Below, one piece after another: positions 1-19,918 of a DNA stretch of 20,000 nucleotides. Each line of letters starts with the position of its first letter. The first letter of the stretch is position 1. Source of the stretch: Reclinomonas americana ATCC 50394 (lineage: Eukaryota). The stretch is from positions 116,400 to 136,399 of the forward strand of contig PS015109.1 of assembly GCA_048213135.1 (NCBI GenBank). The letters are read 5' to 3'. Position numbers and translations under genes: made by a program. The notes under the pieces were generated by a model, which saw nothing but the letters and a program-made list of their open reading frames with translations, made no database searches and was not told the origin of the DNA.

Positions 1-3000
1 TGACGGATAATGGCCGCCGGAGCACCACCATCGTTGCTGCGATCGGCGGCGTAAATATTGCCGTCGGGGCAAACCGCCAGCGCGGTGATGACGTTGAATG
101 TGGCGGCCACACCGATAGAGTTGTCGGAGGCGCCGGGGTTCTCCGAGCCTGCCAGGCGACTCCACGAAGGCACCAAACGCACCGAGTTGCCACCGTCGGG
201 CACGTACTCCATAACAATACGGTACAAAGCGTGGCCATCGAGGCCAACTCCGGCACTACTGTTGTAGTACACGGTGCAGTCGGCGGGATCCACGGCCACC
301 ACCGATGGCTCGTTCACGTTGAAGTCACTGGCCTTGCCACTTATTACGGGCGTGCCACTCACAGACGCCGACTTGACAACAAGCGTTTGCACTTCCATCG
401 ATACCAGATCGATGAGGCGGAGTGCGTTGTTTCCGGTATCTTGTGAGTGCGTGATTGTTAGTGATNNNNNNNNNNNNNNNNNNNNNNNNNNNNNNNNNNN
501 NNNNNNNNNNNNNNNNNNNNNNNNNNNNNNNNNNNNNNNNNNNNNNNNNNNNNNNNNNNNNNNNNNNNNNNNNNNNNNNNNNNNNNNNNNNNNNNNNNNN
601 NNNNNNNNNNNNNNNNNNNNNNNNNNNNNNNNNNNNNNNNNNNNNNNNNNNNNNNNNNNNNNNNNNNNNNNNNNNNNNNNNNNNNNNNNNNNNNNNNNNN
701 NNNNNNNNNNNNNNNNNNNNNNNNNNNNNNNNNNNNNNNNNNNNNNNNNNNNNNNNNNNNNNNNNNNNNNNNNNNNNNNNNNNNNNNNNNNNNNNNNNNN
801 NNNNNNNNNNNNNNNNNNNNNNNNNNNNNNNNNNNNNNNNNNNNNNNNNNNNNNNNNNNNNNNNNNNNNNNNNNNNNNNNNNNNNNNNNNNNNNNNNNNN
901 NNNNNNNNNNNNNNNNNNNNNNNNNNNNNNNNNNNNNNNNNNNNNNNNNNNNNNNNNNNNNNNNNNNNNNNNNNNNNNNNNNNNNNNNNNNNNNNNNNNN
1001 NNCCACCGTGGGCGACATTACCGGATACCCGTCGTTGCCATTGACCAGGCCATTGGAGCCTGCCGTGCCCGCCAGCGTGGACGCAGTGTACTGACCGGAG
1101 CCGGGCATAGTTTCGGTGAGACGACGCACAATGTGCGTGCCCGACTGCGTCGTCGTGCAGCAGGCAAATGAGGTCACACGAGCATGAGAATGAATAGAGG
1201 AGCCATATGCAACAACACAACGCAACATCAGTCACGTAAAAGTCCAGAGGTCCGCTGTAGTTGGGCGTCAGAGCCGTGTACGGCGGTGGACCAGTCACGA
1301 TACTGACTGGAGATGAGTGCTTGCCTACGGAGGGACCACCAGCTGTCGAGCCCGCCATGTTGGCCGTGCCGGAGAGGATGGCGGTCATGTAGTCGAAATC
1401 GGTGTGGTCTGTTGTATACTGAAGATCCACCGTTGCCGCCTCGCCAAAATTGTTGTACGCCGCAGTAACGGTGACGGAGGTGTTGGTGGCGGTGCGCGCA
1501 GACACATACGTGTCTTCGAATGTGGGGCGTTGAGCGGTGCGGAACGCGGCAGAGAGAGTTGCGTGCCACATGACAGGCAGCGACTTGAGAGTCACCGACG
1601 ACGGATCCACAGCGTACTCCGACGGCTGCGTGCGCACGGCTACCATGCGGTAGAGCACCAAGGTGTTCGGCGCCAGACCTGTCACCGAAGCACTCACAGA
1701 GTTGACGCTGGAGAGATCGGTCAGCGGCGTGGCCGCCGTCAGGTGGGTCACGGGCATCTGAATTCGCCGGATTGAATCGCTGGCAGCCTGATCACAAGCA
1801 AATTCGTGAGACTGCTGGCACAATGCGGAGAGCCATAGGGCATGAACCACGCAACATCCGCGACATAAATTGCTCGATTGTACTCGTCGAACACCAGTCC
1901 GGTGGGTAAATTGAAGGAAGCCAAGGGTCCATCTGTGTTGCCGAATTGGAAATAGCTGCCGGCTAGCGTAGTGACAGACACGTTGTTGTTGAGGAGGCGA
2001 ATCTCGCGAATGGTACCAGCAGAATCCGACACGACGATGCGACCACTGCGTTGACCAATCGCGATACCCTCCAGCTGCTGGAACCGAGCCGAGTTCTTGT
2101 CGCCATCAGCACCACCGTTGGTTGTCACACTACCGGCGATGGTCACCACAGAGCGCGCGTAGGGGCTAAACACTCGCACCGTGTATCGATCGCAAATGAA
2201 CAGTTGCCCGCCGGAATTCACCGCCAGTCCACTAGGCCTGGTGAATAGCGCCCCTGTGCCAGTGCCGTCCACAGTGGAGGGTGACGCGAACATGGAGGGG
2301 TCACCGGCAACAGTATTGACATAGCCTGCGGGGCGACAGAATAGTCAAAATAGAGGGCAAGGCGACGACAAGAAGGAGGAATGGCGTGCGTACCAGTGGC
2401 AGGGTCGTAGCTGCGGATAACTTTGATGCCCGCGTCGGCAATGTACAGAACTCGGCGGTTCTGGTCGAACGCCAATTCCACCGGCGTACCAAATCGCGCA
2501 TCCGTCCCAAAGCCATCAGTGTGCATGGTACCGACTGTGAAGGTACCAGCCACTGTCGACGTGACGCACGGTGTTGACGAGCAGTCGAGGCGGCGAATGG
2601 AACGATTTGTCACGTCGGCCACATACAAGTGTGAACGATCGCGGTCCCACGCCAACCCTTGTGGATGACAGAAGCGCGGTGGCGAGTCGGACATGGGGTC
2701 GCAGGTACCATCATGACACGAACCGTAATCATACAAAGAACCGGTGCCGAGCGTCCACGCCGTAATACAGTTCACGGATTGCTTGGTAATGTAAAACGTG
2801 GTGCTGCCTGAGCTGCTGTCCGTCTGCACAATTCCCCGGGGGTAAAAGGGCACGCCAAGGACCGTGTATGTGGTCGGCTTGAAGCTCCACTGATCGGTCG
2901 TATACTCGAATGCCGCGCTCATGAAAGACGACGCTCCGAGCGTGGTGGCCGTTCCCCGAAGCGTAGCGCTCGTGGCCGTCCCATCCGCCGCACCCACTAT

Positions 3001-5610
3001 TGACAGGGAGGGCAAGAACCCGGTGGAACACACACCACCAGTGGTGGCGCGCGACAGCAACTGAGTGGAGGGATTGCGCAACATGAAATTGACCGTGTAC
3101 GAACTCGCCGGCGCCAGATCCTCGATGCGCACCGAGAACGACGTGGTTGAAGTCGGAAAGGTGGTGACGTAGATGCGAGGGCGGCGTGGTAGCGACGCAG
3201 TGCGCAGCGTCTGCGACGAAAAGGGGGAGGAAAGGGGAAAGGGATTAGAAGGGAGGGAGGAGAGGGGAAAGGGGAGGAGAGGGAAAGGGTACACGAAGGA
3301 AGGGGAAAGGGGATGAAGGGGATAAGGGGAAGTGAGCGAGGAAGGGAGAAACAGAGAGAGGGAGGTAAAATGAACTCGACGAAGTGGCAGGAGGAGAGCG
3401 AGTAATATGGGACAGGAGGGATTGAGTGACATCGAGAAAGTGAGGGAAACACGCGACAAGAAGATGGAAGTGAAAAAGGGACAGCAAGAGAGTACCTACA
3501 TGAGCTCGATGTGACAGGAAGAGACTGAGTAATATTAGACAGGGGGAATGGAGTGACATCGAGATAGCTCTCTCTCTCTCTCCCTCTCTGAGAGGGTACG
3601 CAACGTGCGCAACGCGGTCGACAATGATCACTCGATACGGTGTGTCACTGATGTAGACCAGATCGGTGGGCGCCAGAAACGCCGCATTGGCCGAGCGGCC
3701 GTCCATGTTGGCATTCACACTCGGGTTGCCGCCCGCAGTGGTGACGGCTCCGAGAAGGGTCACTTCTCGAATGACTCGTGCGTCGCGGTCGGCCACCAGC
3801 AGATAGCGAGTTTGCTCCAGCTGGTTGTTGACATAAGTGATGCCAGTCGGCGCCGTGAATCGCGCCGCACTGCCGACGCCATTGGTCACACCAGCGGCGG
3901 CTGTCGGGTCGCCGGCAATCGTGTCCACAGCGCCCGACGACAAATCGATCTTGCGCACCACCCGCGCCGTCGTGTCAGTGAGGAACAGGGTGGGCGTGCC
4001 GGCGAGATCGGCCATGACCATGCGGCCGGGTGATACGAAGCGCGCATTCGTGCCGACATCGTCGACATTGGCCGACATGCCCAGTGCGCCATACGGCGTC
4101 GTCACCACAAACGTGCTGCCGAGAACAACGCTGACCTTGCGAATGGCGTTGTTGCCGGAGTCGGCCACGTACAAGTCGTCGAAGGACGAATTGTTGGAGT
4201 TGCGCGCCAGACCGCTGACGGTGGATGAGAAGCGCGCCGCCGCGCCGGTGCCGTCACTGGAGCCGCAAGTGCCCGCCGTGCCCGCAAAGTGTGAAATGAT
4301 GCCCGTGGCGCCGGTGATGTTGATGAGGGAGCAGGAGGACTGGAAATAGGGGAAGGGGGGAGGAGGGGGAAGGAGGGGGCAAGTAAGGGGGAGGGGAAGG
4401 AAAGGGGAGGAGGGGAAGGAGGGGGGAGGAGAAGGGGGAGGGAGAAGGAGTAGAGTAGAGAAGGGGGAAGGAGGGNNNNNNNNNNNNNNNNNNNNAAGAG
4501 AGGGAAGAGAGGGGAAGAGAGGGGAAGATGAGAGAAAGAGGAATGAGATGGAGAGAGAGCGCGCGAGAGAGAAAAGAGAGAACAAGAAAGAGACGTTCAG
4601 ACGAAGAAAGAGCGAGAGGGAGAGAGAGAGAAAGGAATGCGAGCGAAACAGTGCGTGGAGAATGAGACTAGGAGAGCAAGTGATGACGATATGAATGTGT
4701 GTGCTAGACTCTCCGCGGACGCAACATCGCCGACAAAAAGCGCAGTGGAGGATGTGGCGTAATCGCGGCCGACAGCCACAACAACTGGCGACGACAGCTT
4801 GCCGACACCAACGGCGCCATTCGTCAACCCCGACGACATTAGGGTGCCGGCGTAGGTGGCCGTGTTGCCACTTACATCCAACGTGCGGATCACGTGATTG
4901 TTTCTGCACAGAGGGAAGACACAGAGAGAGTGTGAGCGACGAAGGAACGATCGACATTGGGAAGACAGCAAAATCAACAGGAAAGTGGCGTGGAGAGAGA
5001 GCGATGCAAACAGGAGTGAGAGTTAAGGGAGCGACGAAGGAGCGACTAACATGAAGAGAGAGGTAACGAGCAACAGAGTTGAGAGACAGTTACAACGGAG
5101 TGACAGAGATGCGATGGCAGGAGCGCGATGCCAACGACAAGGAGGCAATCACAGGGAGAGGAACAGCGATAGAGATGTGGCACACACACACACGCAAGTG
5201 ACTGCAACGCAACGTATCCGCGACATACAACGTGCTCGTCACCGTGTCGTACGCCACACCCGATGGCGTATCAAACCGCGCACCTGTGCGCTGTCCATTC
5301 GTTGTGCCCGGCGTGGACACACCGCCAGCAAAGGTCACCACATTGAGCTGCATGTCATCGCCGATACCATACTCGGCGTAGAGATTCGTGCCAGCCGGTG
5401 GTGAGAACCCATTCAGATTGATCGTGCCCGACAGAGCGCAGCTGGTCGGATCAGAGTGCATGGTATCCGACGACGACATCGAGAAGGTCGGTGTGGCAAT
5501 CAGCCCATTCACCACATGCACCACCATCAGCAATGCCGCAATCAACCAAATGGATGCTGATGACGCGCGGAACGACGAAAAGGCGCGTTGTCGATGCGCG
5601 TGTGACGCAC
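1..5610 (-). CDS. Large secreted/surface NHL-repeat (beta-propeller) and FN3-like protein, multi-exon, 3' end beyond window. Exons: 5610-5214, 4903-4726, 4339-3605, 3210-2394, 2325-1856, 1787-1227, 1144-1003(gap), 439-<1. First coding exon uncertain (possible ATG at 5800).
   Basis: Frame-consistent GT-AG joins restore NHL motifs (YVADTNNHVIR, YVADSGNNAIRKV, YVADVTNRSIRRL, YVTDSGTHIVRRL, DTGNNALRLID; DGTGAAARF, GFGTDARFGTPVELAFD). Signal-peptide-like IWLIAALLMVVHVVNG. FN3-like strands TSATLRGT..FEY and LAPASSYTV / GLAPNTLVLYR. Confidence 0.88.
3368..3567. repeat. Degenerate ~70 nt direct repeat pair inside an NHL-gene intron
   Basis: gagtaatat..gacagg.ggga.tgagtgacatcgaga occurs at about 3400-3437 and 3527-3564. 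Confidence 0.7.
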
Positions 5611-6279
5611 CTGCGCAAGAAAGAGAGAGACAGAAAAGGAGACAAAAGAAGAAATGCGTCAATAAATCAATGTGTTTTCTCTCCTCTGTGTGTGCATCAG
5701 CGTGTGTGTGACAGAGAGCATGGCGCACACATACACACACACGAGAGAGAGAGAGAGAGAGCGCGCACGCAGGGGAAAAAAGACACACAATACTACTCAT
5801 GTTCGCACTCACTGAATCCTGCGTTCGTAATGTGTGCATTGAATGTGTTGTCATGCTCACCATGACGCGGGCGGACAGCGTGCATGCAAGCCACACGCAC
5901 GCACACACGCACACACAATAAAAGGCGCGTCGATAAAGTGCGAAAAGAGTCGAGCAAAGTCCGGAGGAAATTTCATGTTCTTCTGGACACATTCTGTAAA
6001 TCATCGGTTGATGGCTACAAGCACATAAGGAGGCGGCAAGGGCGCGCTCGCTTTGACAAGGGTCATCCGAGATGCAACAACAGAGGCCAGGACGTAAATA
6101 AATATATCCGAACTGTACATGTCGAAGTATTAGTGTGCTTCATGGTGATCACTTGCAACTGCGACAAGCTTCCCCGCATGTAGATGAAGCATATGCCGAA
6201 ACGAACAGCATGACGTGCAGAAAACAGAAGCCAAAGTGTTCAAAGTCTGAAATTTCGAATTCGAATTTCGAACATGTGC

Positions 6280-6780
6280 AGCAGTGTGCTTCACAGCGAC
6301 CTTCTGCTACGATATCAGTGCAAGGCGCATGTGCGCACAACAAAGGCGATAATTACTTTGGAAAAAAGAGCAGCACAAGCAACAGGAAACAAATGTCAAA
6401 ATGAATTCCGAGCATGCATGCATTTGCATTGCTGTGCTTCACGGCGAATTTCTGCAACTGTGCTGATGCGAGCCACGTGTGTACGCGACAACGGCGATGA
6501 TTACTTTGGACAAAAGAGCAGCACAACGTGCAGGAGACGAAAGTCAAAGTGAAAAATACATGACATGGTAGCATTGTGCTTCACGGCGATTTTCTGCAAC
6601 TTTACTAATGCGAGCCACGTGTGTACGCGACAACGGCGATGGTTACTTTGGAAAAAAGAGCAGCACAACATGCAGGAGACGAATTCGAAAGTCAAAGTGA
6701 ATTTCGGAACAAGTGCATGCAGCTGCAGTGTGCTTTTTGAGCGATACCCGTCGTATACCGCATGCGTACGCGACGAAGAC
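6280..6780. repeat. Degenerate tandem repeat, ~145 nt unit, about 3 full copies plus a partial, in the divergent intergenic region between the NHL gene and Tom7
   Basis: tgtgcttcac(g/a)gcga..ttctgc...gcgagccacgtgtgtacgcgacaacggcgat..ttactttgga.aaaagagcagcacaa starts near 6285, 6433 and 6575, with a partial copy near 6728. The first copy is the most diverged. Confidence 0.85.
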
Positions 6781-6878
6781 GACAAGCAGAAACAAGCAGC
6801 CTCGACAACTGTAAACGTGAGATTTCACAGGGTTACTGGAGGGTTACAAACACCCACATCACTTCACTCTGTTCCACA

Positions 6879-7322
6879 ATGGGCGTCGCGTCTTCCTCCG
6901 CAACAACCACATCCACCACCACAACGACGACCACGACGACTGCGGCAGCCTCTGCAGCGCCAGCGGGCGCACCGTCGTCGTCGTCGGTGATGGCCGATGA
7001 GGACTTTGCGCAGGCGTCGAGCGCCAGCTTGCCGGGCGAGAAGACCGTGGCGAAGAAGACGCTGCGACAGAAGGTGCTCGATGGGTTGCGCACGGGAGCG
7101 TATCACTGTTGCGTTGCACGAGGAGACAAGAGTGGTGAGCCATGTCGTCGCAACATGTGCACTGACTCTTTGTGTGTGTGTGTGTCAGTGGTGATTCCGG
7201 GTCTGTTGTTGTATGGATACTTGTCGGAGCCGTCGTACTCTCTGTGGGAGTTGGTGAGCCCGTTGCCGCAGAACCCCGAGGCGTTGCAGGCGCAGTCACA
7301 GCAGGCAGCTGCTGCTGAGTAA
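6879..7322 (+). CDS. TOM7: Mitochondrial outer membrane translocase subunit Tom7. Exons 6879-7107 and 7189-7322 (81 nt in-frame intron). Alternative start ATG at 6990.
   Basis: Spliced core KVLDGLRTGAYHLVIPGLLLYGYLSEPSYSLWELVSPL matches the Tom7 pattern (H..IP hydrophobic helix G..SxP..LxxLxSP). Intron has GTTGCG donor, ctgac branch-like motif and tgtcag acceptor. Confidence 0.8.
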   Translation: MGVASSSATTTSTTTTTTTTTAAASAAPAGAPSSSSVMADEDFAQASSASLPGEKTVAKKTLRQKVLDGLRTGAYHCCVARGDKSGEPCRRNMCTDSLCVCVSVVIPGLLLYGYLSEPSYSLWELVSPLPQNPEALQAQSQQAAAAE

Positions 7323-7420
7323 TCTCTCTCTTTGTGTGTGTGTCTTAGTGGAAGGCGTTGGCAGGGTGGTATACTCTCTGCGAGAATGTCGGCGGTGGGG
7401 CTTAGGTGTTAGAATACATT

Positions 7421-7503
7421 TGTGTGTGTGTGTGTGTGTGCATTGGGAATCGATGTGATTGTGCTTGGGGGAGTGGGAAGTGAGAGAGAGAGAGAGAGAG
7501 AGA
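7421..7503. repeat. (TG)n and (GA)n microsatellites next to an assembly gap
   Basis: Seen directly. Confidence 0.9.
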
Positions 7504-7599
7504 GGAGCAGACNNNNNNNNNNNNNNNNNNNNNNNNNNNNNNNNNNNNNNNNNNNNNNNNNNNNNNNNNNNNNNNNNNNNGAGCTTCTGTGCGCTTCTG

Positions 7600-8290
7600 T
7601 GCGAGAGTGCTTTGCCATTGAGGGATAGTTGGGCAGTAGTCTGCTTTGCATTCCGAGTGATGCGAGTGAGAAGGCGAGGATTCGCTTGCAGAGCAGACTG
7701 CGGCCTGCATGCATTCCGCTTGTTGTCGAGTGAGAAGGCGTCGAGTCGTACATTGCTTGCGCTGTGCCGCATTCTGCATCTTGTACGAGTGAGAAGGCGA
7801 GAATTCACTGCTCGGCATACATGGTGCACCTTGTTAGTGGCGAGAATGCGAGTGAGAGGGTCGCGTGCGCTAACTCTGCTTTGCGTTCTTCATGTTTGCA
7901 CCTTGTTCAGTGGCAATTGGAATGGCGAGAGTTCACTTGCAGAACATGCAGCCTCGTGTTGACAAGCTCGGTGCACCTTGTCATAGGCGAGAATGCGAGT
8001 GGGAAGGCGCTGTACTCGCTACGCTTCGCATTGCACCTTGTTCAGTGGCAAGTGGAGAGGCGAGGATGGCCTATATACTTTCCGCTTGTTGGTATTCACA
8101 TTGCACGTTGTCGGAGGCGAGTGAGCGGTCTTGTTTGATGTTCGCAGGCGAGAATTCGCTTGTGCTGCATGCAGCAATCTGCTATTCGTTCTTCATGTCG
8201 AGTGTGTTGCATTAGGTGGCTTGCACTGAGAGGAGAAAGAATTCTATGCTGTATTTCGCGCGTGTGGTGCACCTGCAGTTGTGAGATCGA
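7600..8290. repeat. Degenerate minisatellite (~60-75 nt monomers) between the convergent Tom7 and F-box genes
   Basis: gagtgagaaggcg at about 7665, 7728 and 7787; tgcac(c/g)ttgt...ggc(g/a)a at about 7825, 7897, 7972, 8032 and 8102. Confidence 0.75.
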
Positions 8291-8355
8291 CATTTAAGGG
8301 TGCTGCACTTCCCTTTGCGTGCCGAGAAGGGATACATCGGGAGATTTCTATTGTT

Positions 8356-8361
8356 TTATTC
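8356..8361 (-). promoter_or_regulatory. Putative polyadenylation signal AATAAA at the F-box stop codon (approximate position)
   Basis: Minus strand reads ...CCA TGAATAAAAC. Confidence 0.35.
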
Positions 8362-10081
8362 ATGGTACATCGGCGGCATCTGGATTGGTGCTGACGAGGA
8401 CGCCAGTTCCTTCCCACTGTGGCGGTCGCACGTGAGGGCTGGTTGTCTCTTTCACTCTGCTTCTTGTGCTCACGACAAGAAATATTGGTCTTCGACGGCT
8501 CCCTTCATGTCGCTGTCTCTCGCTCTGCATTCTGTGTTGTCGTTGTCGTTATTCTCCTTCTCCTCTCTCTCTCTCTCTTCGAAAGGAGAAGTGCAGAGAG
8601 AGACTGCAGTGCTGCTACCTCAATTCTCTCTCTCTCTCTCCGTCTCTCTCTCCCTCCGTCTCTCTCTCTCTCTTTCTCTCTGAGGTTGCCCTACAGAAGA
8701 GATTGCGTCTTATCGTTGCTTTCAAGTGCATTGCGCGTCTTCAGTGCGCCTTCCATGATACTCTCTCTCTCTCTCTCTCAGTCGATGTCGTGCACCCTTG
8801 AGGTTGCGACATCTTATCCTTTCTCTCAACTGCATTACTTGTCGTCAGTGCGCCTTCCTCGACACACTCTCTCTCCCTCCCTCTCTCCCTCCCTCCCTCC
8901 TTCTCTCTCCCTCCCCTCCCCTTCCCCCCTCTCCCTCTTCCCACTCAACTGCCTGCTGGTCATCCGGCACGCCCGTTCGCATGCCGAGTCCAGTCCATTG
9001 CATGCGCACCTCCCCGGTGAGCACGTCAAGCTCGCACTCTGCGTACAGTGGAGTGAGAAAACGAAAGCACCTGCACTCCCCCGCTGTCTCCAACCCGCGC
9101 AACTGTACTCGATCTTGCCGCTGGGGCCGAGAAAGATGAGCATGTTGCCGGCGGCTACGCGATCCCAGTTCTGCAGTTCTCTCTCAGTAAGAAAGAGAGG
9201 GAGGCTCACACGCGCAAACCGCCCGCTGCGCACCTGCTTGATGCGATACTCGTCGTAATGCACGCCGACACTCGTCGTGCCGTCGGTGTTTGGCCGCGTC
9301 ACGCGACCGCGCAGCAAGACAACTGGCAACACGAGAGGGGTCAGCGTCCATACAACCAATCATTCGACAATCTCAAGTCGCCGCAACTGGCGCTCTGCGA
9401 GCCCTGGAGTGGAAAGATGGAGCGACCGGAGAACTCGCCGCCCTCGATGCGATCGATCGCCACCCGCACTGGAATCTGCTCGTCGATATCAAACTGGTAC
9501 ACGTGCCCATCAAACACCAGCCGCGACTGCCCCGTGATGCCAATGGCGTCGCCGACGTGCGCCAACGCGCGCAGCTCTCGCGACACTCGCACGGTCGATT
9601 CGCGTTGCAGGAGGTGCCGCAGTACGGGACTCGCTCGGAGAAACTCCCACCACGACATGCTGCGAGGGCGGTGAGCAGCACAAAAGGATGCAGAGTGTAC
9701 CAATGAAACAGGGCGCACCGTTGTCGTCCACCGTCCACAAAGGGCGGTTGCAGCGCGGGTTGTGGCTGGTCGACTGCTGTGATCGTGAGGATCCGAAGAC
9801 AACTCGAGCGCAGGTGACAGGAGAGAGCACGCAGCCTTCATGTGCTTGGTAGGGCCACATGGCAGTGACAAGGCGACTCCACAGTGCGTCGCTCGTGCAC
9901 ACGCGGTTCCACAGGCGACACACCAGCGTCGTTTTCTGTGAATAAAAGGTTGTCAGTGAGTCACCCACTCTCCCGTGTGTGTTGCCTCGTTCCTCTCAAC
10001 TCGCAGAATGTCGGCACGTGGTCTCAGGAACGAGAAGATGAGGGCGAACACGCCGAGGTCTTCGTACCCGAGGAGAAACAT
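8360..10081 (-). CDS. F-box protein, ~270 aa. Exons 10081-10001, 9935-9836, 9776-9719, 9659-9388, 9322-9234, 9170-9104, 9038-8950, 8416-8360.
   Basis: N-terminus DLGVFALIFSFLRPRADILRKTTLVCRLWNRVCTSDALWSRL is a typical F-box. All joins are frame-consistent. The stop TGA overlaps an AATAAA. The exon 2/3 boundary is ambiguous (GC donor model). Confidence 0.8.
8681..8875. repeat. Degenerate ~80-90 nt duplication plus (CT)n tracts in the last F-box intron
   Basis: tgaggttgc...tcttatc...tgcatt...tcagtgcgccttcc...ctctctct starts at about 8681 and 8799. Confidence 0.7.
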
Positions 10082-10278
10082 GGGCGCGAAGTACAATGCA
10101 TGACAGGATGCAAGACACGACAGGACGCGCTGTGTAGTTCCTCTTTGCAGAGCTCTAACGCAGCAGTGTCTTTGCAGTGCATCCACTGCTAGCATGCTGA
10201 GTGGACGTCGCTGGTGGTCGTCCACATTCACCGATGCTCACCAGTTGCATCGGTTCATCTTGAAGGGTGGTGTGCCCC

Positions 10279-13200
10279 ATGCTTCCATCCAACAGCAACA
10301 GCAGCGCAGTGGTGCGGATTGTGGACTGGGAGTGCGGGTTAATATCCATGTGCATGCGAGTGTGCGTGTGCATGCATGCTGAATGGCAGTGCATGCGTAT
10401 AGATCGTACCGTTCCCTCGCGCAATGTTTGTCAACACTCCGCATGATGTGCGCGACGTGTTGTTGCCCGACAAGACGAACAGCTTCGTGCAGCTGCAGAT
10501 TCCTGCGGTGCCAAAGAACGGGCCCGAGGAGTTTGCATGTCGAGTTGTCACTGAGAGGGTGCCGGCGTTCTTTGGCACTGCTGGCATCGGCAAGACATCG
10601 CAGATGACGAGGGCGGCTGGCAGGCTGGAAGCGCTGCTCGTGAACGGTGATTCGCTCGACTAGAGGGAGAGGCTGCGTCTTGCGTCTCACACTACTCTCC
10701 AGCGGGCTACCACGTCCACCGACTGGATGTGGCATATGGCAACGCAAGCAGCCTCGGCGGGGTTGCGCAGTGCGAGAAGGCTTCGCCGTTGGCTGACGGC
10801 AGGCTGGTCGAGGCGCCTGCCGAGTTTGTGCAAGCGGCGACTGCGTGGCGGCTTCTGCTGGCCCACTTCTGTGTGCAGGGTACGGCGCGTTTCTCGCTGG
10901 TCGACGATGTACGCGCTGCCTATGGCGACACGTGGTCCATACTCTCCACTGCAGTCGCGATGCAATGCATTCGGCTGGATCTGATTGAGGCCGGTCGTCT
11001 CAAGAAAGACGGCAAGTGCGTGAGGTGTGAACATGCTGTCTGTGCTGCATACATCGCTCACTCTAACAGGTTGGCTGTGCTTTGCTTGATGGACGACGTT
11101 CAGAACATCCTGTACACGGCAGTGGAGGCAGCGCAGTTGCTGAGGTCAGCCGATCCGACTGCACTGGCGGTCTGTGCACGCAGCAATGGTGCGCATTGCG
11201 TTGTTCTTACCAGCGGTGGTGCACCGCAGTCACTTTGCCGACGGCGTCTGACGCTCGCACTGCAAGCGATGCAAGAGTCTCTCCCACAATCGGGCACAAA
11301 TGTGGTCTTTCCCATGATCGCTGGCGTTGTCACTGTGGATCCGATCGCAGTGGAGTCGACGCTCGCTCTAGTCCCCGGGATTCCACTTGAATTATGGGAG
11401 ACTGACGAACTGATGCGGCGCATGTTTGAGCTCACGGACGCGAGTTGCGTGTGTTTGTGTGTGAAGGAGTTTTCCAAGGTCTCGCTTGGTCGTCGTTTCA
11501 AATTTTCGCCGCTCTCTGTGACTTACTCTAACCATCGATTCCGCAGCAACTGCGCTCACTGGTGTCGGTCTTCCGGCATCCGTCCGCGTGGCCTGGCGTA
11601 CGAGCAAGGCGTTGCGATCGGCACTGGACAGTCGTGCTCAACTGGCGCGAGAGCAGATCAAAGTCGTGAAAGCCGCACTTGGTTGCGTGATGGAGCCCCT
11701 TGCGCGTGGGTCTCCGCTCACTCATCATCCTCTCTCCGAGCAGAATGTCTGCAAGTGACTGGCCAAGCTGAAGATGGTGACCGGTGACTTTGTATCCGCC
11801 TTGAGCACACTGTGGTCGCAGCGCTCACTGGTTTCCTTCGCAGGTCGCTCTGTGCTGTCGATTGACGACGGCAAGCTTGCGTGTAATCTGCCCGGCATGG
11901 ATGCCTCAGTTCACATTGAGGAAAAATCTTGCATGCCGCGATCGACGCTGGTAATGTCACAGCACCTGCGGTCGAGGAGGCGGTTGCTGCAGGGCATGTA
12001 GTTCTGCGTTTGGTGAGTTTTCTCCGCCTCATGTTGTGTGTTTGCTTCCTTCATGAGCCTGACTGTTGGGCGATAGACGCCAGACAGCAGGTTCAAGGTG
12101 TACGTGCCGCCAGTGCTCCTCTTGCAACTCTGGGGGACGACTGGCCGATATGCTGCTCTTGTTGCAAAGATGATGTCGTGCGGATTGGATGGCGAAAGGA
12201 TGAGGCCCTCTCGCGCGTGGGAGGTGTGGCGGGTGGCGTACGTGTCGATGCAAGTGGAGCGACACATTCCCGTGGCGTCGATGTCGTTAAAGTCCATCTA
12301 CAGACTGGACGCCTTGCAAGGTTTGTGCAAGCGCGGTTGATTCGCAGAACACAAGCTCCTCTCACGCTCCTCAGCACCCATCCATGATGTATGGAGAACT
12401 ACGGTGCGCCTTGGACAACTGACGCCAGAAAGGACTGTGGACGCGGCAGACATTGTCAGCAGTCGCTGGTCACCACCATGGCTGTCGAAGAACGGACCTG
12501 TTGAGGTACCGTTGCTGTGTACGTTGCTTCCGCCGAGAGGTTGCTCACTCCACGTCGAGCAGGTCTCCAGAGGCCGGTTGTCCGCCGTCTACCTGACGGC
12601 CGACAGTGCATGTGGCTGTAGTTTTGTGACTGCGTTCGAGACTGAAGACAAGCGACGGATTGTGGTTCTTGAACAGTGCCAGCTGCTTTTCCGTGACGCA
12701 GAAGTTGTTGCACGAGCGCTGCAAAAATTGTACTCGGTGTGTGGTTCGCGACGCTCTTCGGACTCTTCAGGTCGTTGAAATCATGGCGTGCGACACACAG
12801 ATCGGTCAGTTTTTCGCGCGAGCCAACACCGTATCGTGGGTTGCCGTGCTGTCATCACCGCATGCGATCCCTGCCTTGCATGACCGCGACTGGGACCGCA
12901 TCGGCATATCAGCAGACGATCGCTCTCGGTTCGCCGTGATAGACAAGGCTGTGGCGGCCGAGTACTACGGACCAACTTTCTGCGATATGCCTCTGCGTAC
13001 GAGTTGCGTTGCGGAACTTCCATGCCGCATGCGGCAACCTCGTGCTGATCGTGTCGCAGCGCAACTTCGAATCAACTCATCCGACGGCACCGACTCTGCC
13101 ATCGCGACAGCACTATTCGATGTGCTGATGCTCCTTGTGGGCGACGCGGCAGCAGAAACCGTCAAAATGGAGGTGGCAGTGCTGGCCAAAACGATAGATT

Positions 13201-13379
13201 CTTCGAAGCCGCTCACTGGCTACAGATCGGCCGACCACCTGTGTCAAGTGATCGGCAATTGCAACGAACAATCCGCTCGAAGAGTTCTCGACGTTCTGCA
13301 ACTTGCCGGGCAGCGGATCGGTGACGCCAATGCCATCAACGACTTGCATTCGTGGTTCACCTTTGTCTTTCGCTTCTGA
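10279..13379 (+). CDS. CR (Crinkler/RHS)-like protein: P-loop NTPase + degenerate restriction-endonuclease-fold domain + HhH-like tail. Model exons: 10279-10311, 10403-10646, 10703-11015, 11070-11443 (possible in-frame intron 11170-11229), 11547-11681, 11744-11776, 11844-11882, 11963-12012, 12077-12320, 12375-12505, 12563-12703 (or 12736), 12771-12996, 13060-13379.
   Basis: Walker A FFGTAGIGKTS, strand RLDVAYGN, Walker B VLCLMDDVQ, VVFPMIAG, GLP motif. Then VYVPPVLL, RAWEVWRVAY, CSFVTAF..IVVLEQCQ, AVIDKAVAAEYYGPTF and LRINSS..LAKTI..GYRSADHL. The exon model at 11680-12010 is less certain. Confidence 0.7.
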
Positions 13380-13549
13380 TGGCCGTGAAGTCTCGACGCA
13401 TTGAAATGCGCGCGGGACAAGTGAAGTGCGCTCTGCGTTTGCGTGAGAGTGAGAGAACGAGTCGTGGGGGCTTGCTAAGAGGAGACGGTGGTCAAGGGGA
13501 GAGTGTTGGCGATTATCAGGACAGGTGAGAGGAGCAATGCAAGAATAAC

Positions 13550-14264
13550 ATGCAACACACAAATGCCACGTTGATTCGCTCACTTATTCACTCAGTCACT
13601 CACACACACACACACTCACACACACAAGCACTCAGTCACTCACTCACATGCACACACTTTCTCACTCTCGCATTTACATGTGCACAATCAATCACTGATT
13701 TCCTCCCCCTTGTCTCACTCCTTCTCTTCTTCTCCATCTCTCACTCACTCTCTGGCTCACTCTCCCTCCCCCTTGTCTCCTTTCCCTCTCTTCTTCTCCC
13801 TCTCTCACTCACTCACTCACCCTGCCCCCGCTCATTGCCTTTTCCTTTCTCTTTCCCTCCCTTCTCTCACTCACTCACTCCCACAGCACACCGCCGGCAT
13901 CACCCTCAAGCGACACCTCGTCCACCCCCGTCGCCACCCACTCCACGCCCTTCCTGCTCATTCACCAGTCGACCTCCTCTCCCACCACCGCCAGCGAAGA
14001 GCACGGACTTCTCCTCGGCCAACCCGTTCTCCGTCGTCGCAGTCGCAGTGCCAGTCGCCGGGGTGCACTTGAGGACCTCTCTCCAGCAGTCGCCGTCACT
14101 GTTGTAGCGCCCTTTGCACTTGTTATTGACAGTGCAAGAGAGGAAGGAGAAGAGGAGGAAGAGGCTGAAGAGGAGGAGGAGGAGAACAGCAGCGCCAACA
14201 GCGAGCTGGATCGACGACAACTCATCGCCAGTGATCTCTACTCGTCGGTCGGAGCAGCAGAGTG
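13550..14264 (+). CDS. Probable 5' exons of the TTC7-like gene (13550-13569, 13887-14264): low-complexity Ser/Pro and Glu-rich N-terminus
   Basis: Phase-2 join MQHTNAT|TPPASPS... across a pyrimidine-rich intron. Open frame continues to ELDRRQLIASDLYSSVGAAEW and ends at a GTTGCG donor. Confidence 0.5.
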
Positions 14265-14274
14265 GTTGCGTGAT

Positions 14275-14558
14275 TCTCTCCTCCTTCTGCGTCTCCTCCT
14301 TCTCCTTGCTCTTGTGCTTCTTCTTCTTTTCGTTCTTGTTCTTCTCCTTCTTGTTGTTGTTCTTCTTCTTCTTTGTCTTCTTCTTCTTCTCCTCCTCCTT
14401 CTTCCTCTTCCTCTTCTTCTTCTTCTTCCTTCTCCTTTCTTCTCCTTCTTGCTGTCTTTTCATTTCCTTTTCCTCATCCTTCTTTCCTTCTCCTCTTCTC
14501 TTCTTTCTCCTCCTCCTCCTCTTTCTCCACCACCTCCTCCTCCTCCTCCTCCTCCTCC
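14275..14558. repeat. Intronic (TCT/TCC/TTC)n trinucleotide low-complexity tract
   Basis: Seen directly. It causes the spurious poly-K/E/F/S ORFs. Confidence 0.9.
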
Positions 14559-14980
14559 NNNNNNNNNNNNNNNNNNNNNNNNNNNNNNNNNNNNNNNNNN
14601 NNNNNNNNNNNNNNNNNNNNNNNNNNNNNNNNNNNNNNNNNNNNNNNNNNNNNNNNNNNNNNNNNNNNNNNNNNNNNNNNNNNNNNNNNNNNNNNNNNNN
14701 NNNNNNNNNNNNNNNNNNNNNNNNNNNNNNNNNNNNNNNNNNNNNNNNNNNNNNNNNNNNNNNNNNNNNNNNNNNNNNNNNNNNNNNNNNNNNNNNNNNN
14801 NNNNNNNNNNNNNNNNNNNNNNNNNNNNNNNNNNNNNNNNNNNNNNNNNNNNNNNNNNNNNNNNNNNNNNNNNNNNNNNNNNNNNNNNNNNNNNNNNNNN
14901 NNNNNNNNNNNNNNNNNNNNNNNNNNNNNNNNNNNNNNNNNNNNNNNNNNNNNNNNNNNNNNNNNNNNNNNNNNNNNNNN

Positions 14981-15488
14981 ACCCTCGACGTACTTGTGCA
15001 GGTGATCCACCACCGCGCTAAAGTCGGCAAATGAATCCGCGAACCGGCCATTCCGGTAGTCGAGCAGGCCTGTTGCACAGTGAGATATTACTCTCCTTAC
15101 TCTCCGTTGCCTTTTCCCCAATGACGCACCCTTGACCGTCATCACCATGCAGTACTCGAGCAGGGTGCCGAACGGCTCGAGAATGAACTCATTGGCGTCG
15201 GTGATGTTGAGCGGAATCACCACCACGGTCTGTCCGCACTGCGCTGGGGGGTGGAAGGCACTGCTGTCGAGGATGGTGGCCGCCTCGGCGAGATCATTCA
15301 GCGCGAGGTGGCACTCGGCGAGCAGGGCCACCGCACGCTGCGCGAGGCTCAGACCGGATGCATCGACAAACAACCAACCAAAACAGACAAACAAGAAATC
15401 ACCTCCGAGTTCGCATGCTGCACCATGGTGGCCTCGAGCACATCCTTGGCCGCACGCACCGTCGACAGCGCTGCACGGCGGGCCTCCG
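14981..15488 (-). CDS. Internal TPR exons (15488-15403, 15337-15130, 15069-14981), probably part of the TTC7-like gene on a mis-oriented contig
   Basis: Spliced HANSERAVALLAECHLALNDLAEAATILD...YCMVMTVKGLLDYRNGRFADSFADFSAVVDHL resembles the N-terminal TPRs of NPG1/TTC7. Two GT-AG introns (65 and 60 nt). Gaps on both sides. Confidence 0.65.
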
Positions 15489-16248
15489 ANNNNNNNNNNN
15501 NNNNNNNNNNNNNNNNNNNNNNNNNNNNNNNNNNNNNNNNNNNNNNNNNNNNNNNNNNNNNNNNNNNNNNNNNNNNNNNNNNNNNNNNNNNNNNNNNNNN
15601 NNNNNNNNNNNNNNNNNNNNNNNNNNNNNNNNNNNNNNNNNNNNNNNNNNNNNNNNNNNNNNNNNNNNNNNNNNNNNNNNNNNNNNNNNNNNNNNNNNNN
15701 NNNNNNNNNNNNNNNNNNNNNNNNNNNNNNNNNNNNNNNNNNNNNNNNNNNNNNNNNNNNNNNNNNNNNNNNNNNNNNNNNNNNNNNNNNNNNNNNNNNN
15801 NNNNNNNNNNNNNNNNNNNNNNNNNNNNNNNNNNNNNNNNNNNNNNNNNNNNNNNNNNNNNNNNNNNNNNNNNNNNNNNNNNNNNNNNNNNNNNNNNNNN
15901 NNNNNNNNNNNNNNNNNNNNNNNNNNNNNNNNNNNNNNNNNNNNNNNNNNNNNNNNNNNNNNNNNNNNNNNNNNNNNNNNNNNNNNNNNNNNNNNNNNNN
16001 NNNNNNNNNNNNNNNNNNNNNNNNNNNNNNNNNNNNNNNNNNNNNNNNNNNNNNNNNNNNNNNNNNNNNNNNNNNNNNNNNNNNNNNNNNNNNNNNNNNN
16101 NNNNNNNNNNNNNNNNNNNNNNNNNNNNNNNNNNNNNNNNNNNNNNNNNNNNNNNNNNNNNNNNNNNNNNNNNNNNNNNNNNNNNNNNNNNNNGTCGCGG
16201 GGGGCTTGTCGTCGCGTGTCTTGCTCATCGTGCATGTGTGTCACACAG

Positions 16249-18555
16249 ATTCATGGATCGGCTGACACCGCGTGTGTTGGAGCGTGTGCAACCATTTTTC
16301 GCCTGGCATCTCGAGCAGGCACTCCTATACACTCCCCTGGCTGCTCACCGCTCTGGGTACGCCCGGTACATTTTTGTGTGTTTTGCTGTCCACTTATTTT
16401 TCTTCTCAGCGAGTCCGCGATGACGGTCCTGCAATTGCATCGCGAGGGCCTCTCCTTCCCCTACAAGTTGCACAAACGTGCGCGGTGGCTGCAGCTCTTC
16501 AACTGCGCCGAGCACTTGCTGTATCACATGACCGAGGAGATGTACACGGCCGAGGGCTTTGGGTCGCATGTCGGCAGCGTGGCGAACGCCATGTAAGTGA
16601 CTCTCTGCGTCCTTGTGCGTCAAGTGCGAATTGCTCATCTGCCTCTGGCAGCACGATTGAGCGGCCTTCGAGCGCGCTCGAGGAGACCGTGGGTGTGTTG
16701 TTGCTTCTGGAACGTGAACTCACCGGTTTTGAGGCGGAGATGGTGCATCACATTGTTGTTGAATTGCTTCATCTGCTTTCCCACTCTCACCTTGTGCGCT
16801 CCCGACGCAGGCCATATCTCGTGAGTCTGTGTACTGCATGCTCACCGATGCACTGATTCGCACCGGTCAGCGAGTGCAGCTGCGACGAGTTGCGTGCACA
16901 TTTCATAGACTTGCGCAGGCCATTGACATCTACTCACTGCAAAATCAGCTGCTGGAGGACTCGCTGAGTGTGTGCTTCTCCGAGTCTCGCCGCGTGCAAT
17001 ATCGCTACATCATGTCACTGTTTGGCACGCACGAGTATCGGCACTGCCTGCGGGTACTCAAGGAGCATCGCAATCTCATCGATCGGTACGAGGCGCCAGG
17101 TGCCGCGCGCAACAGCACCCTGTGCTCCCTCGACATGTTCAAGTGCAAGATCCTCGTCAACGTGTTCGGGCAGGTGAGCGGCCTCTATGCATGATTGCAT
17201 GCAGCACTGCCTGTGCGTGTGTGCATCTCAACGTAGAGTGTGTCGCGCAGCATGCCACCGCGTGGGACGTTGTGAATCAAATGCAAACATTGCCGCCACC
17301 ACCGCATCTGCACGTGTTGTGCGCGTACGCCGAGGCGCTGTGCATGTGGCACTCGGCCAGTGCTCAAGGTTGGTGTATGCATGCTTGCAGGTTTTGTTTC
17401 TTTCCTTACTGTTCTGACGCGGCACTCCTGCGCCAGAGGGTTCGTTCCAGAAGCAAATCGCCTTCCGAGAGACTGCCGTGCGCGCGTTCCACAACATTTA
17501 CGAATCGAGCCCGCTGTCGCACAACTATGGGCGTGCATTCGCGCTCACACTGGCCTCCTGCCGTCAAGTGCGCGAGGCCGCCGAGCAGTGCCAGCGGTGT
17601 CTGGAGATGGTCCCCGTGCCGGCGCAGACATGGATTTTGACGGGCATGGTGCTCACCGCAGCCAAGATGCCATCGGCAGCCCTCGAAGTGATCCACACCG
17701 CACTGGAGGATCATCCGCTTGACTTGGGGTGCGTTTCAGTTTTATTAATGGATGTGCGCGCCAAGCTCACCATTGTGCAGACTTTACTTCCTGCGAGGAT
17801 GCGTCGAATTCCAGCTCGAGCTTCATGAGCAGAGCTTGTCAACCTTTCGCGAGTTGCTGCAACTGGTCACCGATCGGTTCCAGCTCGCCGCCGTTGACTC
17901 TATTGACCGACAGTTGAGTGCTCGTTTGTGTGTGTGAGGGTGCATGCCCACTGCAATAATGTGACCTGATATGTTCGTGCGTTGCGTAGTCCGGTTCTCG
18001 AGCACTCCATGGAAGAGGAATGGGAGTGCCGTGATCGGACCACGGTGTGGACTTGCGGAAGTGGTGAGACTCGTTCCGCATGCGCGAGAGAATGTGGCAG
18101 AGCCATGCGCTCATTCTTCCTTGTGTGCAGTTCTCGACACCTCGAGCCCGGCTGTGCGCGTCGGCATTGCAAAACTGCTGACGCAACTCAGCCAGTGGTT
18201 CCTGGCACTCGATGAGCACGACGATGCGCGAGTGGCTGCCGCACGAGCCAACGCACTGAGTCCCAACTCGGCCGACTGTCGGTTCACTGTGCGTGTGTTC
18301 TTATTCTGAACTCTTGACTCCTCCTGACCCTGACCCGTGTTGTGCTGGCGAAAAATAGATCGGCCTTCTGCAACTGCATCAGGGATACCAAGAGGAGGCG
18401 CTGCAGGACTTTGAGCGTGCAACATCGCAGAGCGCGCCGCATTGCCAGGCTCACGTGGAGACCGGGCGCATCTTTGCACAATTCGGTCGCTTGCACTTGG
18501 CGCGACATCACCTCGTGCAAGCCATTCGCATCAACATGTTTTCCCACGAAGCATG
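16249..18555 (+). CDS. TTC7: TTC7/Ypp1/NPG1-family TPR protein (PI4-kinase IIIalpha complex scaffold-like). Exons 16249-16356, 16410-16592, 16652-16742, 16811-16888, 16949-17173, 17251-17368, 17437-17728, 17781-17912, 17990-18063, 18131-18288, 18359-18555. Last exon not seen (probably in the gap at 18665).
   Basis: PSSALEETVGVLLLLE, SVYCMLTDALIRTGQ..LLEDSL..F, ALTLASCRQVREA, VLTAAK..ALEVIHTALEDHP and QAIRINMFSHEAW occur in the order known for TTC7. All joins are GT-AG and frame-consistent. Confidence 0.8.
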
Positions 18556-18565
18556 GTGCGGTGCT

Positions 18566-18566
<1 letters not shown>

Positions 18567-18623
<57 letters not shown>

Positions 18624-18642
18624 ACCTCTCTCTCTCTCTCTC
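18567..18642. repeat. (CA)n followed by (CT)n microsatellite, intronic
   Basis: Seen directly. Confidence 0.9.
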
Positions 18643-18969
18643 ACTCGTCCCCTCTCCACTCACGNNNNNNNNNNNNNNNNNNNNAGGGAAACAAGGAACG
18701 AGGAGGAGACAAACCGGCCAGTCATGCGCCACGAGACACGCACAAGCAAGGACCCTCACGGGCAACACTCTCACCGCGTGCGTGCGCATCACCCCGCGAC
18801 ACGTAATGACTGGCAAACCCAACCCCGCCCTCCACATCCTCCCCCACCAAAACAACAACAACCGTCATCCCGTGACCTCGTGGCACCCACTTGATTGTCG
18901 TCCACCGTCACCGGCACACACCAACGGAGCAGGAAAAAAAACGAGAACAGAATCACCCCAAATCACACA

Positions 18970-19412
18970 TTATGCCGAGTGGCCAATCTTGGAGGCATAC
19001 TCCTCGTGACGTTCGTCACGGCGGGCACGCGCCTCGGCATCGGCCAGCAGCTCGTCGGGTGACTTGGCCGCCTCGCTGGCATGCTGGCCAGCGAGAGAGA
19101 CGTAGGCACGAGAAGTGGCCGCCATGTTCTTCTTCTCCTCGGCGGAGAGGTCGCGCACGTACCTCGCGGGCGCACCAGCCCACAGCTGCGTAGGTAAAGA
19201 TATGTGCATGAGTGAATGGGATAAGAAAAAAAAGGGGGGGAGGCAGGGGTAGGACGAAACCTGGCCGGCGGGGATTTGCTGATTCATCTTGACGAGCGAG
19301 CCGGGGCTGACCATCGCCTCCTCACCAATCACGGCGCCGTCGAGAATAATGGCGCCGAGACCGACAAAGGCCTTGTCCTTGATTGTGCAGGCGTGCAGGA
19401 TTGCACCGGATT
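18970..19412 (-). CDS. Gamma carbonic anhydrase family protein (mitochondrial complex I CA-type subunit), last two exons 19412-19261 and 19185-18970. 5' exons lie beyond the window.
   Basis: Hexapeptide repeats SGAILHACTIKDKAFVGLGAIILDGAVIGEEAMVSPGSLV..IPAGQLWAGAPARYVRDLSAEE, then a helix YVSLAGQHASEAAKS..EEYASKIG like plant/protist complex I gamma-CA C-termini. Confidence 0.9.
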
Positions 19413-19918
19413 CTGCGGAGGGGCGCAAGGGGGAAGGGAGAAGGGAAGGGAGTTGAGAATAAGAGAGGAGATAAAAAAGCACGAGCGCAATACCGCACGA
19501 AGAAGGAGAAGAGGAGAGGAGAGAAGAGAAATCGCTTTGGTTAGTACAATCGAAGAGGTGACAGGCACCACGAGGTGAGGGTGAAGGGAGAATGCCATTG
19601 AGGAGAGCAACACCAGCAAAGCAAGGAAAGACAAGCAATGAGAAAGTGACAGATGACGACAACGCGCAGGGGACGACAGCAGAAGAGAGGAGCGCACACG
19701 CGGGTGCACAGCGGTACACAAAAGGGCAAGAGAAGAGCAGAGAGGAAACAAAGCGAACGACGCGCCCAGACGCGAGCACATCCACACACAAACGGGAAAT
19801 AAGAATGAGACAGACGACTAATGCAATCACGAGGCACACGCGAAGCGAAAAACGCACATAGCACCAGCACACGCCAGGGAAGATAGATTTAGGGGGACGT
19901 GCCGTGTTTGACATAGTC

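Follow-up and report, generated by a model that had tools for sequence, protein, structure and literature searches.

The stretch of DNA considered here (the window) comprises 20,000 nucleotides of Reclinomonas americana ATCC 50394 (contig PS015109.1, positions 116,400 to 136,399, of the GenBank assembly GCA_048213135.1) and is eukaryotic nuclear DNA with a G+C content of ~57% and six runs of N. Eight genes were modelled in it: gene A (1-5600, minus strand), which encodes NHL-like repeats; gene B (6879-7320, plus); gene C (~8950-10081, minus), which encodes an F-box; gene D (10424-13379, plus); gene E (plus, with an end at 14264); gene F (14981-15403, minus); gene G (plus, starting at 16253), which encodes TPR repeats; and gene H (18976-19419, minus), which encodes a gamma carbonic anhydrase of the type belonging to mitochondrial complex I. 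The introns of these genes begin with two types of 5' splice site (donor), and the subject of this report is the type in which the initial GT is followed by T at the third intron position (+3T donors), typically as GTTGCGT or GTTGAGT. Judged from the sequence, a second abundant donor class of the form GTTG(C/A)GT is very probably real within the window.

A preliminary description of the window had listed 17 motifs of this kind, and a direct check of the sequence found each of them at its coordinate and strand: GTTGCG at 5213, 4725, 3604, 1855, 1226, 9387 and 9103 on the minus strand and at 7108, 11444, 11682, 14265 and 16889 on the plus strand; GTTGAG at 10000 and 8949 (minus) and at 17913 (plus); GTTTCGT at 19260 (minus); and GCTGCGT at 9835 (minus). 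The accompanying remark that most of the motifs have G at +6 and T at +7 holds for 17 and 14 of the 17, respectively. When chance expectation was taken from 200 dinucleotide shuffles of the window, the heptamer GTTGMGT (M being A or C) was found in 16 copies against 7.11±2.66 expected, a number that none of the shuffles reached. The hexamer GTTGMG is weakly enriched (40 copies against 29.84±5.19, with seven of the 200 shuffles reaching 40), so that T at +7 appears to carry much of the signal. Strand and exon-end assignments of the motifs rest on our own gene models; by these, 14 heptamers out of 16 have the same orientation as the local gene and 13 stand at proposed exon ends. By the same reading, sense-strand GTTGCG serves as a proposed donor in 11 of the 12 cases in which T follows and in two of the eight in which another base does; exonic copies of GTTGCG are located at 3082, 7085, 10762 and 11611. 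Only two copies of GTTGCGT run antisense to a gene, presumably by chance, one at 1558-1564 (plus strand, within gene A) and the other at 18181-18187 (minus strand, within gene G).

A census of the eight genes yielded 37 donors, of which 19 are +3T: 16 with GTTGMG, together with GTTTGTG at 12321, GTTGGTG at 17369 and the GTTTCGT at 19260. Three of these (GTTGCGT at 13003 and the donors at 12321 and 17369) are additions to the earlier set, and the heptamer alone marks 13 of the 37. The share of about 40% that had been proposed for the class agrees, within the window, with the census figures of 16/37 for GTTGMG and 19/37 for all +3T donors; over the whole window, 19% of GT dinucleotides have T as the next base. 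Among the other 18 donors, 12 are of the GTRMG type (R being A or G), as had been said of most of them, and the coexistence of the two donor types in the same genes is likewise borne out, since genes A, C, D and G hold both. Donors of the +3T class occur in seven of the eight genes.

To judge individual junctions, compatible donors were enumerated as all GT-AG or GC-AG pairs that fit the flanking frames within eight codons. Strong support was obtained for seven donors of the preliminary description, at 19260, 5213, 4725, 3604, 1855, 1226 and 9387. In these sequences the best-supported +3T junction is that of gene H, which is fixed by homology. Its intron (19186..19260, minus strand, 75 bases, donor GTTTCGTCC, beginning GTTTCGT) separates an upstream exon that matches 6x89_G2, a mung-bean gamma carbonic anhydrase, over residues 131-179 (E=6e-15), from a downstream exon that aligns to residues 180-247 of the same protein (E=6e-7), and the junction 179|180 is gapless, with no residue added. 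The best PDB matches of the gene H protein are plant subunits. A HMMER search with its C-terminal exon against 1.84 billion representative proteins gave 30 matches at E≤0.001, the best of them 52% identical over a 110-residue fragment, and among the ten that were looked up the four named clusters were Cyanidiococcus, Phytophthora cactorum, Fabomonas tropica and Galdieria partita, a scatter over red algae, an oomycete and an ancyromonad with no close relative among them. Protein collections thus seem to cover this organism poorly. According to the accessible sections of Gawryluk and Gray (2010, PMC2900272), no such gamma carbonic anhydrase was found in opisthokonts, Monosiga included, so that the host of the gene probably belongs neither to the animals or fungi nor to the unicellular lineages related to them.

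Five of the seven junctions lie in gene A, on the minus strand. The intron at 4904..5213 (310 bases, donor GTTGCGTTG, CAG end, CTCAC 29 bases before the AG) gives the junction YVADT|NNHVIR, and the one at 4340..4725 (386 bases including a 20-N gap, donor GTTGCGTCC, CTTAC 44 bases before the AG) gives LFVGD|SSCSLINIT. The intron at 3211..3604 (394 bases, donor GTTGCGTAC), with a pyrimidine-rich low-complexity interior, produces IIVDRVAH|TLRTA, and its nearest same-phase alternative donor is a second GTTGCGC, at 3613. The reading frame has to change at the intron 1788..1855 (68 bases, donor GTTGCGTGG, CTCAC 19 bases before the AG; junction IYVAD|AASDSIRRI), and at the intron 1145..1226 (82 bases, donor GTTGCGTTG; junction FYVTD|SGTHIVRRL) the sole other compatible GT, at 1235, would remove the conserved VTD. 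Splicing at these five donors and at an ordinary one, 2393, opens one stop-free frame of 1092 residues, in which each of the five GTTGCGT junctions returns the repeat to the spacing ('D, five residues, [IVL]R') of five uninterrupted units (YVADSGNNAIRK, FLTDTTARVVRK, LVADRDARVIRE, YVADVTNRSIRR and YIADAGIKVIRS). The introns 3211-3604, 4340-4725 and 4904-5213 are also set apart by their size, 310-394 bases of largely pyrimidine-rich low complexity on the sense strand, as most of the others measure 50-103 bases. The seventh junction, in gene C (9323..9387, minus strand, 65 bases, donor GTTGCGGCG, CTGAC 18 bases before the AG), uses the only GT donor that fits both flanking frames within eight codons.

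Four further donors of the earlier set (10000, 9103, 11444 and 11682) ranked best among a few frame-compatible GTs, and a single alternative compatible GT exists for each of 1226, 10000, 9103, 12321 and 17369. In gene C, the 65-base intron 9936..10000 (minus, donor GTTGAGAGG) joins ...IFSFLRPRADILR to KTTLVCRLWNRV; residues 4-23 of the exon that follows match positions 26-45 of 47 of an F-box-like profile, and the other compatible GT is at 10017. The frame-compatible intron 9039..9103 (minus, 65 bases, donor GTTGCGCGG, CTCAC 15 bases before the AG) has as its sole GT alternative the GTTGGAG at 9094, itself +3T. In gene D, the intron 11444..11546 (plus, 103 bases, donor GTTGCGTGT, CTAAC 15 bases before the AG) has five same-phase GT alternatives downstream. 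The next, 11682..11843 (plus, 162 bases, donor GTTGCGTGA, CTCAC 16 bases before the AG), lies in a region where an in-frame TGA at 11756 needs to be removed, and it has an alternative acceptor at 11961 for the same donor and seven other frame-compatible GTs. The intron 12321..12374 (plus, 54 bases, donor GTTTGTGCA, CTCAC 10 bases before the AG; alternative GT at 12325) takes out an in-frame TGA at 12338. The curated model of gene D is complete from the ATG at 10424 to the TGA at 13379, with 692 residues and 11 introns, four of which have +3T donors. For the intron 17369..17436 of gene G (plus, 68 bases, donor GTTGGTGTA), later phase-1 GTs would make the junction a TAG, and the one upstream alternative is GTGCTCA at 17360.

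The remaining candidates, with the alternatives open to them, weigh against the class as it was counted. Other frame-compatible GTs exist for 12 of the 19 +3T donors, and for four of these 12 the alternatives are plausible ordinary donors. The first of the four ambiguous candidates is 13003..13059 of gene D (plus, 57 bases, donor GTTGCGTTG, in frame, stop-free, CTGAT 11 bases before the CAG), which has a same-phase alternative, GTACGAG, at 12997. The second, 7108..7188 of gene B (plus, 81 bases, donor GTTGCGTTG, in frame, stop-free, CTGAC 23 bases before the CAG), faces GTGAGCC at 7135 in the same phase, and the frame is kept if the intron is retained. The third, 16889..16948 of gene G (plus, 60 bases, donor GTTGCGTGC, CTCAC 12 bases before the AG), would follow an 18-base microexon (16871-16888, RVQLRR) placed between a 50-base GTGAGT intron and the 60-base GTTGCGT intron, each with CTCAC and CAG; the frame of gene G is open with the possible microexon (556 residues) or without it (550 residues), and a single 128-base GTGAGT intron is equally compatible. 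For the fourth, 17913..17989 of gene G (plus, 77 bases, donor GTTGAGTGC, beginning GTTGAGT, end GTTGCGTAG, CTGAT 20 bases before the AG), same-phase alternatives are present at 17928 (GTGTGTG), 17932 and 17934 (GTGAGGG). Two more motifs are unverified: the GTTGAGT at 8943..8949 (minus), where the last exon recognisable in gene C ends and for which no downstream exon or acceptor was identified, and the GTTGCGT at 14265..14271 (plus), where an acidic exon of gene E ends and the CT-rich low-complexity sequence beyond runs into an N gap (14559-14980), so that no acceptor is visible.

Several observations may be recorded beside these candidates. Ten bases, GTTGCGTTGC, in which GTTGC is doubled, are common to the donors at 5213, 7108 and 13003 (and also 1226), and at 13003 the second GTTGCG begins five bases after the first. 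The heptamer at 17981 falls in the last nine bases of the intron 17913-17989, such that a motif of the donor type abuts a 3' splice site. Four candidate introns, 7108-7188 (81 bases), 13003-13059 (57), 12506-12562 (57) and 9777-9830 (54), are multiples of three without an in-frame stop; their retention leaves the frame open, and the frame alone cannot judge whether they are spliced. The GCTGCGT at 9835, which had been put forward as a possible donor, is frame-consistent in one rival gene model and has no in-frame acceptor if the flanking exons are read in the frame with high G+C at third codon positions (GC3); the rival model includes a further 41-base GTACAC intron and puts 75 bases in a frame with ~54% GC3, against ~81% in the other. 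Within 9630-9835 of gene C, no GT-AG intron that uses the first AG past a branch motif can connect the frame of the F-box exon with the next clearly coding frame, which leaves as options an odd acceptor (CTCCGAG), the GC donor at 9835 together with the 41-base intron, or a draft sequence that is wrong by one base. The gap that separates gene A from gene B contains, at 6340-6696, a tandem repeat of 2.5 copies of a 142-base unit (83% match), and similar-looking units seem to go on at ~7600-8250, between genes B and C.

In their branch motifs and 3' ends, the +3T introns resemble their ordinary neighbours. Where the 3' end is defined (17 introns), GT is always the first and AG the last dinucleotide, the AG as part of CAG in 16 and of TAG in one, and all 17 have the branch-like motif CTNAY 9-45 bases before the AG, compared with 324 of the 2243 AGs (14.4%) of the whole window. 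Continuity of the protein is restored by splicing for a subset of them, at 19260, in gene A and in gene D, the four candidates named above being ambiguous. Local alignment of the intron bodies (n=16) gave a mean of 7.84, against 7.25 when one partner was shuffled and 7.36 for ordinary introns, and since the bodies have no common sequence beyond the donor, the shared element would appear to be a signal and not a repeated element. A family of introners or other mobile-element introns was rejected for the lack of similarity along the bodies. These are best explained, on the sequence features just given, as genuine GT-AG introns of the major (U2-type) spliceosome.

The ordinary introns with which they were compared are found on both strands. 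On the minus strand these are 2326..2393 of gene A (GTACGCA) and 15070..15129 of gene F (GTGCGTC, the sole compatible GT). Gene D, on the plus strand, contributes 10647..10702 (GTGATTC, again the sole compatible GT) and 11016..11069 (GTGCGTG). Gene G, also on the plus strand, contributes 16357..16409 (GTACGCC), 16593..16651 (GTAAGTG), 16821..16870 (GTGAGTC, which may extend to 16948 instead), 17174..17250 (GTGAGCG), 17729..17780 (GTGCGTT, sole compatible GT), 18064..18130 (GTGAGAC) and 18289..18358 (GTGCGTG).

The two classes can be compared position by position. Among the 19 +3T donors, +5 is C in 14, A in three and G in two; +6 is G in 17 and T in two; and +7 is T in 14. Among the other 18, +4 is C in ten, A in seven and T in one; +5 is G in 14; and +6 is T in eight, C in five and G in four. 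A displacement of the consensus by one base, with G at +6 and T at +7, is thereby found in the +3T class. The exon side differs as well: the last exon base (-1) is G in five of 19 +3T donors and in 14 of 18 others (Fisher p=0.003), and A in eight of 19 and one of 18, respectively. The lower frequency of G at -1 is what would be expected if the intron's own +1 G stood in for the last exon G in pairing with U1.

On balance we lean, without great assurance, toward reading the +3T class as the ordinary signal set placed one base deeper into the intron. In the ordinary class, GTG or GTA precedes C or A, after which come G and either T or C; the second class would have an extra T after the GT, which moves the G(C/A)GT block one base further from the cut. 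U1, and later U6, would base-pair with the moved block one base out of the usual register, an arrangement that may be depicted as a shift or with a bulged U at +2/+3, and cleavage would still take place at the only available GU. Most donors, whichever their class, have C after the G, and U1 therefore probably tolerates or pairs with that C, as has been reported of Mastigamoeba. The register of pairing, the nature of the U1 and the frequency of the class beyond the eight genes of the window are what we infer here.

A number of observations weigh against this reading. If the full ordinary donor repertoire had been displaced, it should recur one base later, and it does not: the +3T class has G at +4 in 17 donors, T in two and A in none, compared with ten G and seven A at +3 of the other donors (p=0.007), and only donors of the GTG type have a shifted counterpart. 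Two members of the class, GTTTGTG (12321) and GTTGGTG (17369), have their G (+5) and T (+6) at the places of the normal register. When the 5' end of standard U1 (sequence from Tan et al. 2016) was used for duplex prediction, GTTGCGT showed hardly any pairing, whatever the register (+0.5 to -2.6 kcal/mol), and the class means were -2.8 kcal/mol for the +3T donors and -5.7 kcal/mol for the others. With a hypothetical U1 end of ACGUAC, borrowed from Mastigamoeba and possibly different from that of the present host, the minimum-energy duplex of GTTGCGT falls in the shifted register, with class means of -5.75 (+3T) and -7.7 (others) kcal/mol. Shifted or bulged U1 pairing had been one of three options in the preliminary description, beside a variant U1 or U6 and a dedicated factor; the G at +6, the T at +7 and the scarcity of G at -1 fit a shift, and the lack of GTTA donors and the weak pairing with standard U1 do not.

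The poor pairing of GTTGCGT with a standard U1 end might instead mean that U1, or a second U1 paralogue, has co-evolved with these donors and acquired a 5' end complementary to GUUGCGU, to be read in the normal register as the U1 of Entamoeba (ACAAAC) reads GUUUGU. The G at +4 in 17 of 19 donors suggests a specific complementary sequence of this sort and not a displaced general consensus, and, in the excerpts available from Roy and Bowser (2022, 10.1101/2022.06.08.495308), the U1 ends of Entamoeba and Mastigamoeba provide precedents for changes that fit atypical donors. We nevertheless think such co-evolution unlikely. The two classes occur at close to 1:1 in the same genes, as opposed to the single consensus of 88-90% of introns given for Entamoeba in the same excerpts, and the loss of G at -1 is predicted by a shift and not obviously by a new complementary U1. 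A scan of the window with Rfam gave no family at the gathering threshold and, at E≤1, four weak matches (three microRNA families and one small Cajal body-specific RNA) with no spliceosomal small nuclear RNA (snRNA) among them.

A more far-reaching proposal, which we consider distinctly unlikely on present sequences, is that there are two parallel modes of 5' splice-site recognition in roughly equal use, served by two U1-like snRNAs or by one U1 and a dedicated factor. The GUUGCGU introns would then constitute a third spliceosomal class beside the U2- and U12-types, with the branch and 3' machinery of the major spliceosome in common.

It is also conceivable that the +3T class has been overcounted, a minority of its members being real and the true share lying far below 40%, with the enrichment due in part to duplicated gene A introns and to chance. 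Three of the five +3T introns of gene A stand at the same position of the repeat and may therefore share ancestry, a point that counts in favour of this explanation along with the barely enriched hexamer, the four candidates with good ordinary alternatives and the two unverified motifs. The census, moreover, was built with the motif known, so that the 51% share of +3T donors in it is not a blind estimate, and neutral gene models made without splice-site scoring (by longest frame or by codon usage) were rejected as an independent check because they ran through introns or took GC donors and were too noisy. Overcounting on that scale is quite improbable in our opinion, in that seven junctions are independently supported in three genes, +3T donors are spread over seven of eight genes, branch-like motifs precede the 3' end in 17 of 17, and the intron bodies lack common sequence beyond the donor (7.84 against 7.25 for shuffled partners). 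When the three paralogous introns of gene A are collapsed to one, 17 of 35 donors are still +3T by our own count.

Recognition might, finally, depend mainly on something other than U1, the GCGU or GAGU at +4 to +7 being bound by a protein factor or read chiefly by U6 and U5 at the catalytic stage, with little contribution from U1. The weak predicted pairing with U1 (class mean -2.8 kcal/mol) and the ability of T at +7, which is outside the usual U6 and U1 core, to separate donors from exonic GTTGCG (11/12 against 2/8) are compatible with this idea. It seems very improbable, however, as the window holds no direct evidence for such a factor and the same G(C/A)GT block is found in ordinary donors where U1 and U6 normally pair, which makes one machinery with a one-base offset the simpler explanation. 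Introns of the U12-type have the donor RTATCCTT and the branch site TCCTTAAC. They are like the +3T class in that a second donor consensus coexists with ordinary introns in the same genes, but both of those sequences are absent from the +3T introns, and a U12-type identity was rejected on the grounds of the GTTGCGT-like donors and of CTNAY branch motifs and CAG ends like those of ordinary introns.

In well-studied eukaryotes U is the rarest choice at +3. If about half of the donors of this genome were +3T, the site at which U1 and U6 pair and the site of cleavage would be routinely, and not just exceptionally, separable, and, if the same held genome-wide, the organism would offer a natural system for asking what fixes the cut site. 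In that event about half of the exon ends would be missed or misplaced by gene finders whose training assumed R at +3 and G at +5. Such failure may be one reason why no protein of the window was found in the collections that were searched: word-based searches that started from exons of genes G, D and H gave no protein match at the thresholds used, and a protein atlas search with the last exon of gene D gave no usable match. A metagenome scan with a gene A exon found four loci at 30-37% identity, which were of no use for intron comparison.

A search of the literature turned up no account of a GUUGCGU/GUUGAGU donor class, which is weak evidence of novelty because sequence logos, being figures, are not searchable, and the portions of the literature that were available for comparison contain no account of two registers side by side at comparable frequency. 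Comparable phenomena are known in humans. Roca and Krainer reportedly found, in 2009, human 5' splice sites that U1 reads in a shifted register. Both the shifted register and a bulge at +2/+3 are described in the sections available from Tan et al. (2016, PMC4856993), where curation leaves 54 of the 68 sites predicted for the bulge (a register of Roca et al. 2012) among 201,541 and the validated noncanonical registers together make up 1.5%. As with the +3T class, the human shifted register has its consensus block one base past the GU and uncouples U1 pairing from the cut; it is, on the evidence of those sections, rare in humans as opposed to ~43-51% of the donors of the window, and its block is AAGU there and G(C/A)GU here. 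Human sites of the bulge +2/+3 type share with the class a GUU in front of the block whose normal start is +3, which can be drawn as one bulged U, although the same source gives 68 of 201,541 such sites, compared with the heptamer at 13 of 37 donors in the window.

Among protists, the excerpts from Roy and Bowser (2022, 10.1101/2022.06.08.495308) describe GUGCGC donors with a U1 end of ACGUAC in Mastigamoeba balamuthi, and a preference for C at +4 with a standard U1 in Thecamonas trahens and the Mamiellales. The ordinary class of the window is similarly rich in GTGCG and GTACG, with C at +4 in ten of 18, although no GUU class is reported for those organisms in the same excerpts. Comparable in respect of +3 is Entamoeba, whose GUUUGU(U) donors are matched by its U1 (AACAAAC) according to this source; these donors regularly have U at +3 and favour T at +7, as in the +3T class. 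A single, near-universal atypical consensus in an intron-poor genome is nonetheless not what the window contains. As far as these excerpts go, Entamoeba is intron-poor and has one consensus (88-90%) that leaves its G (+5) and U (+6) where the normal register has them, whereas the genes of the window are intron-rich, with up to 11 introns per gene, and have two donor classes in the proportion 19:18, the second with its G and U at +6 and +7.

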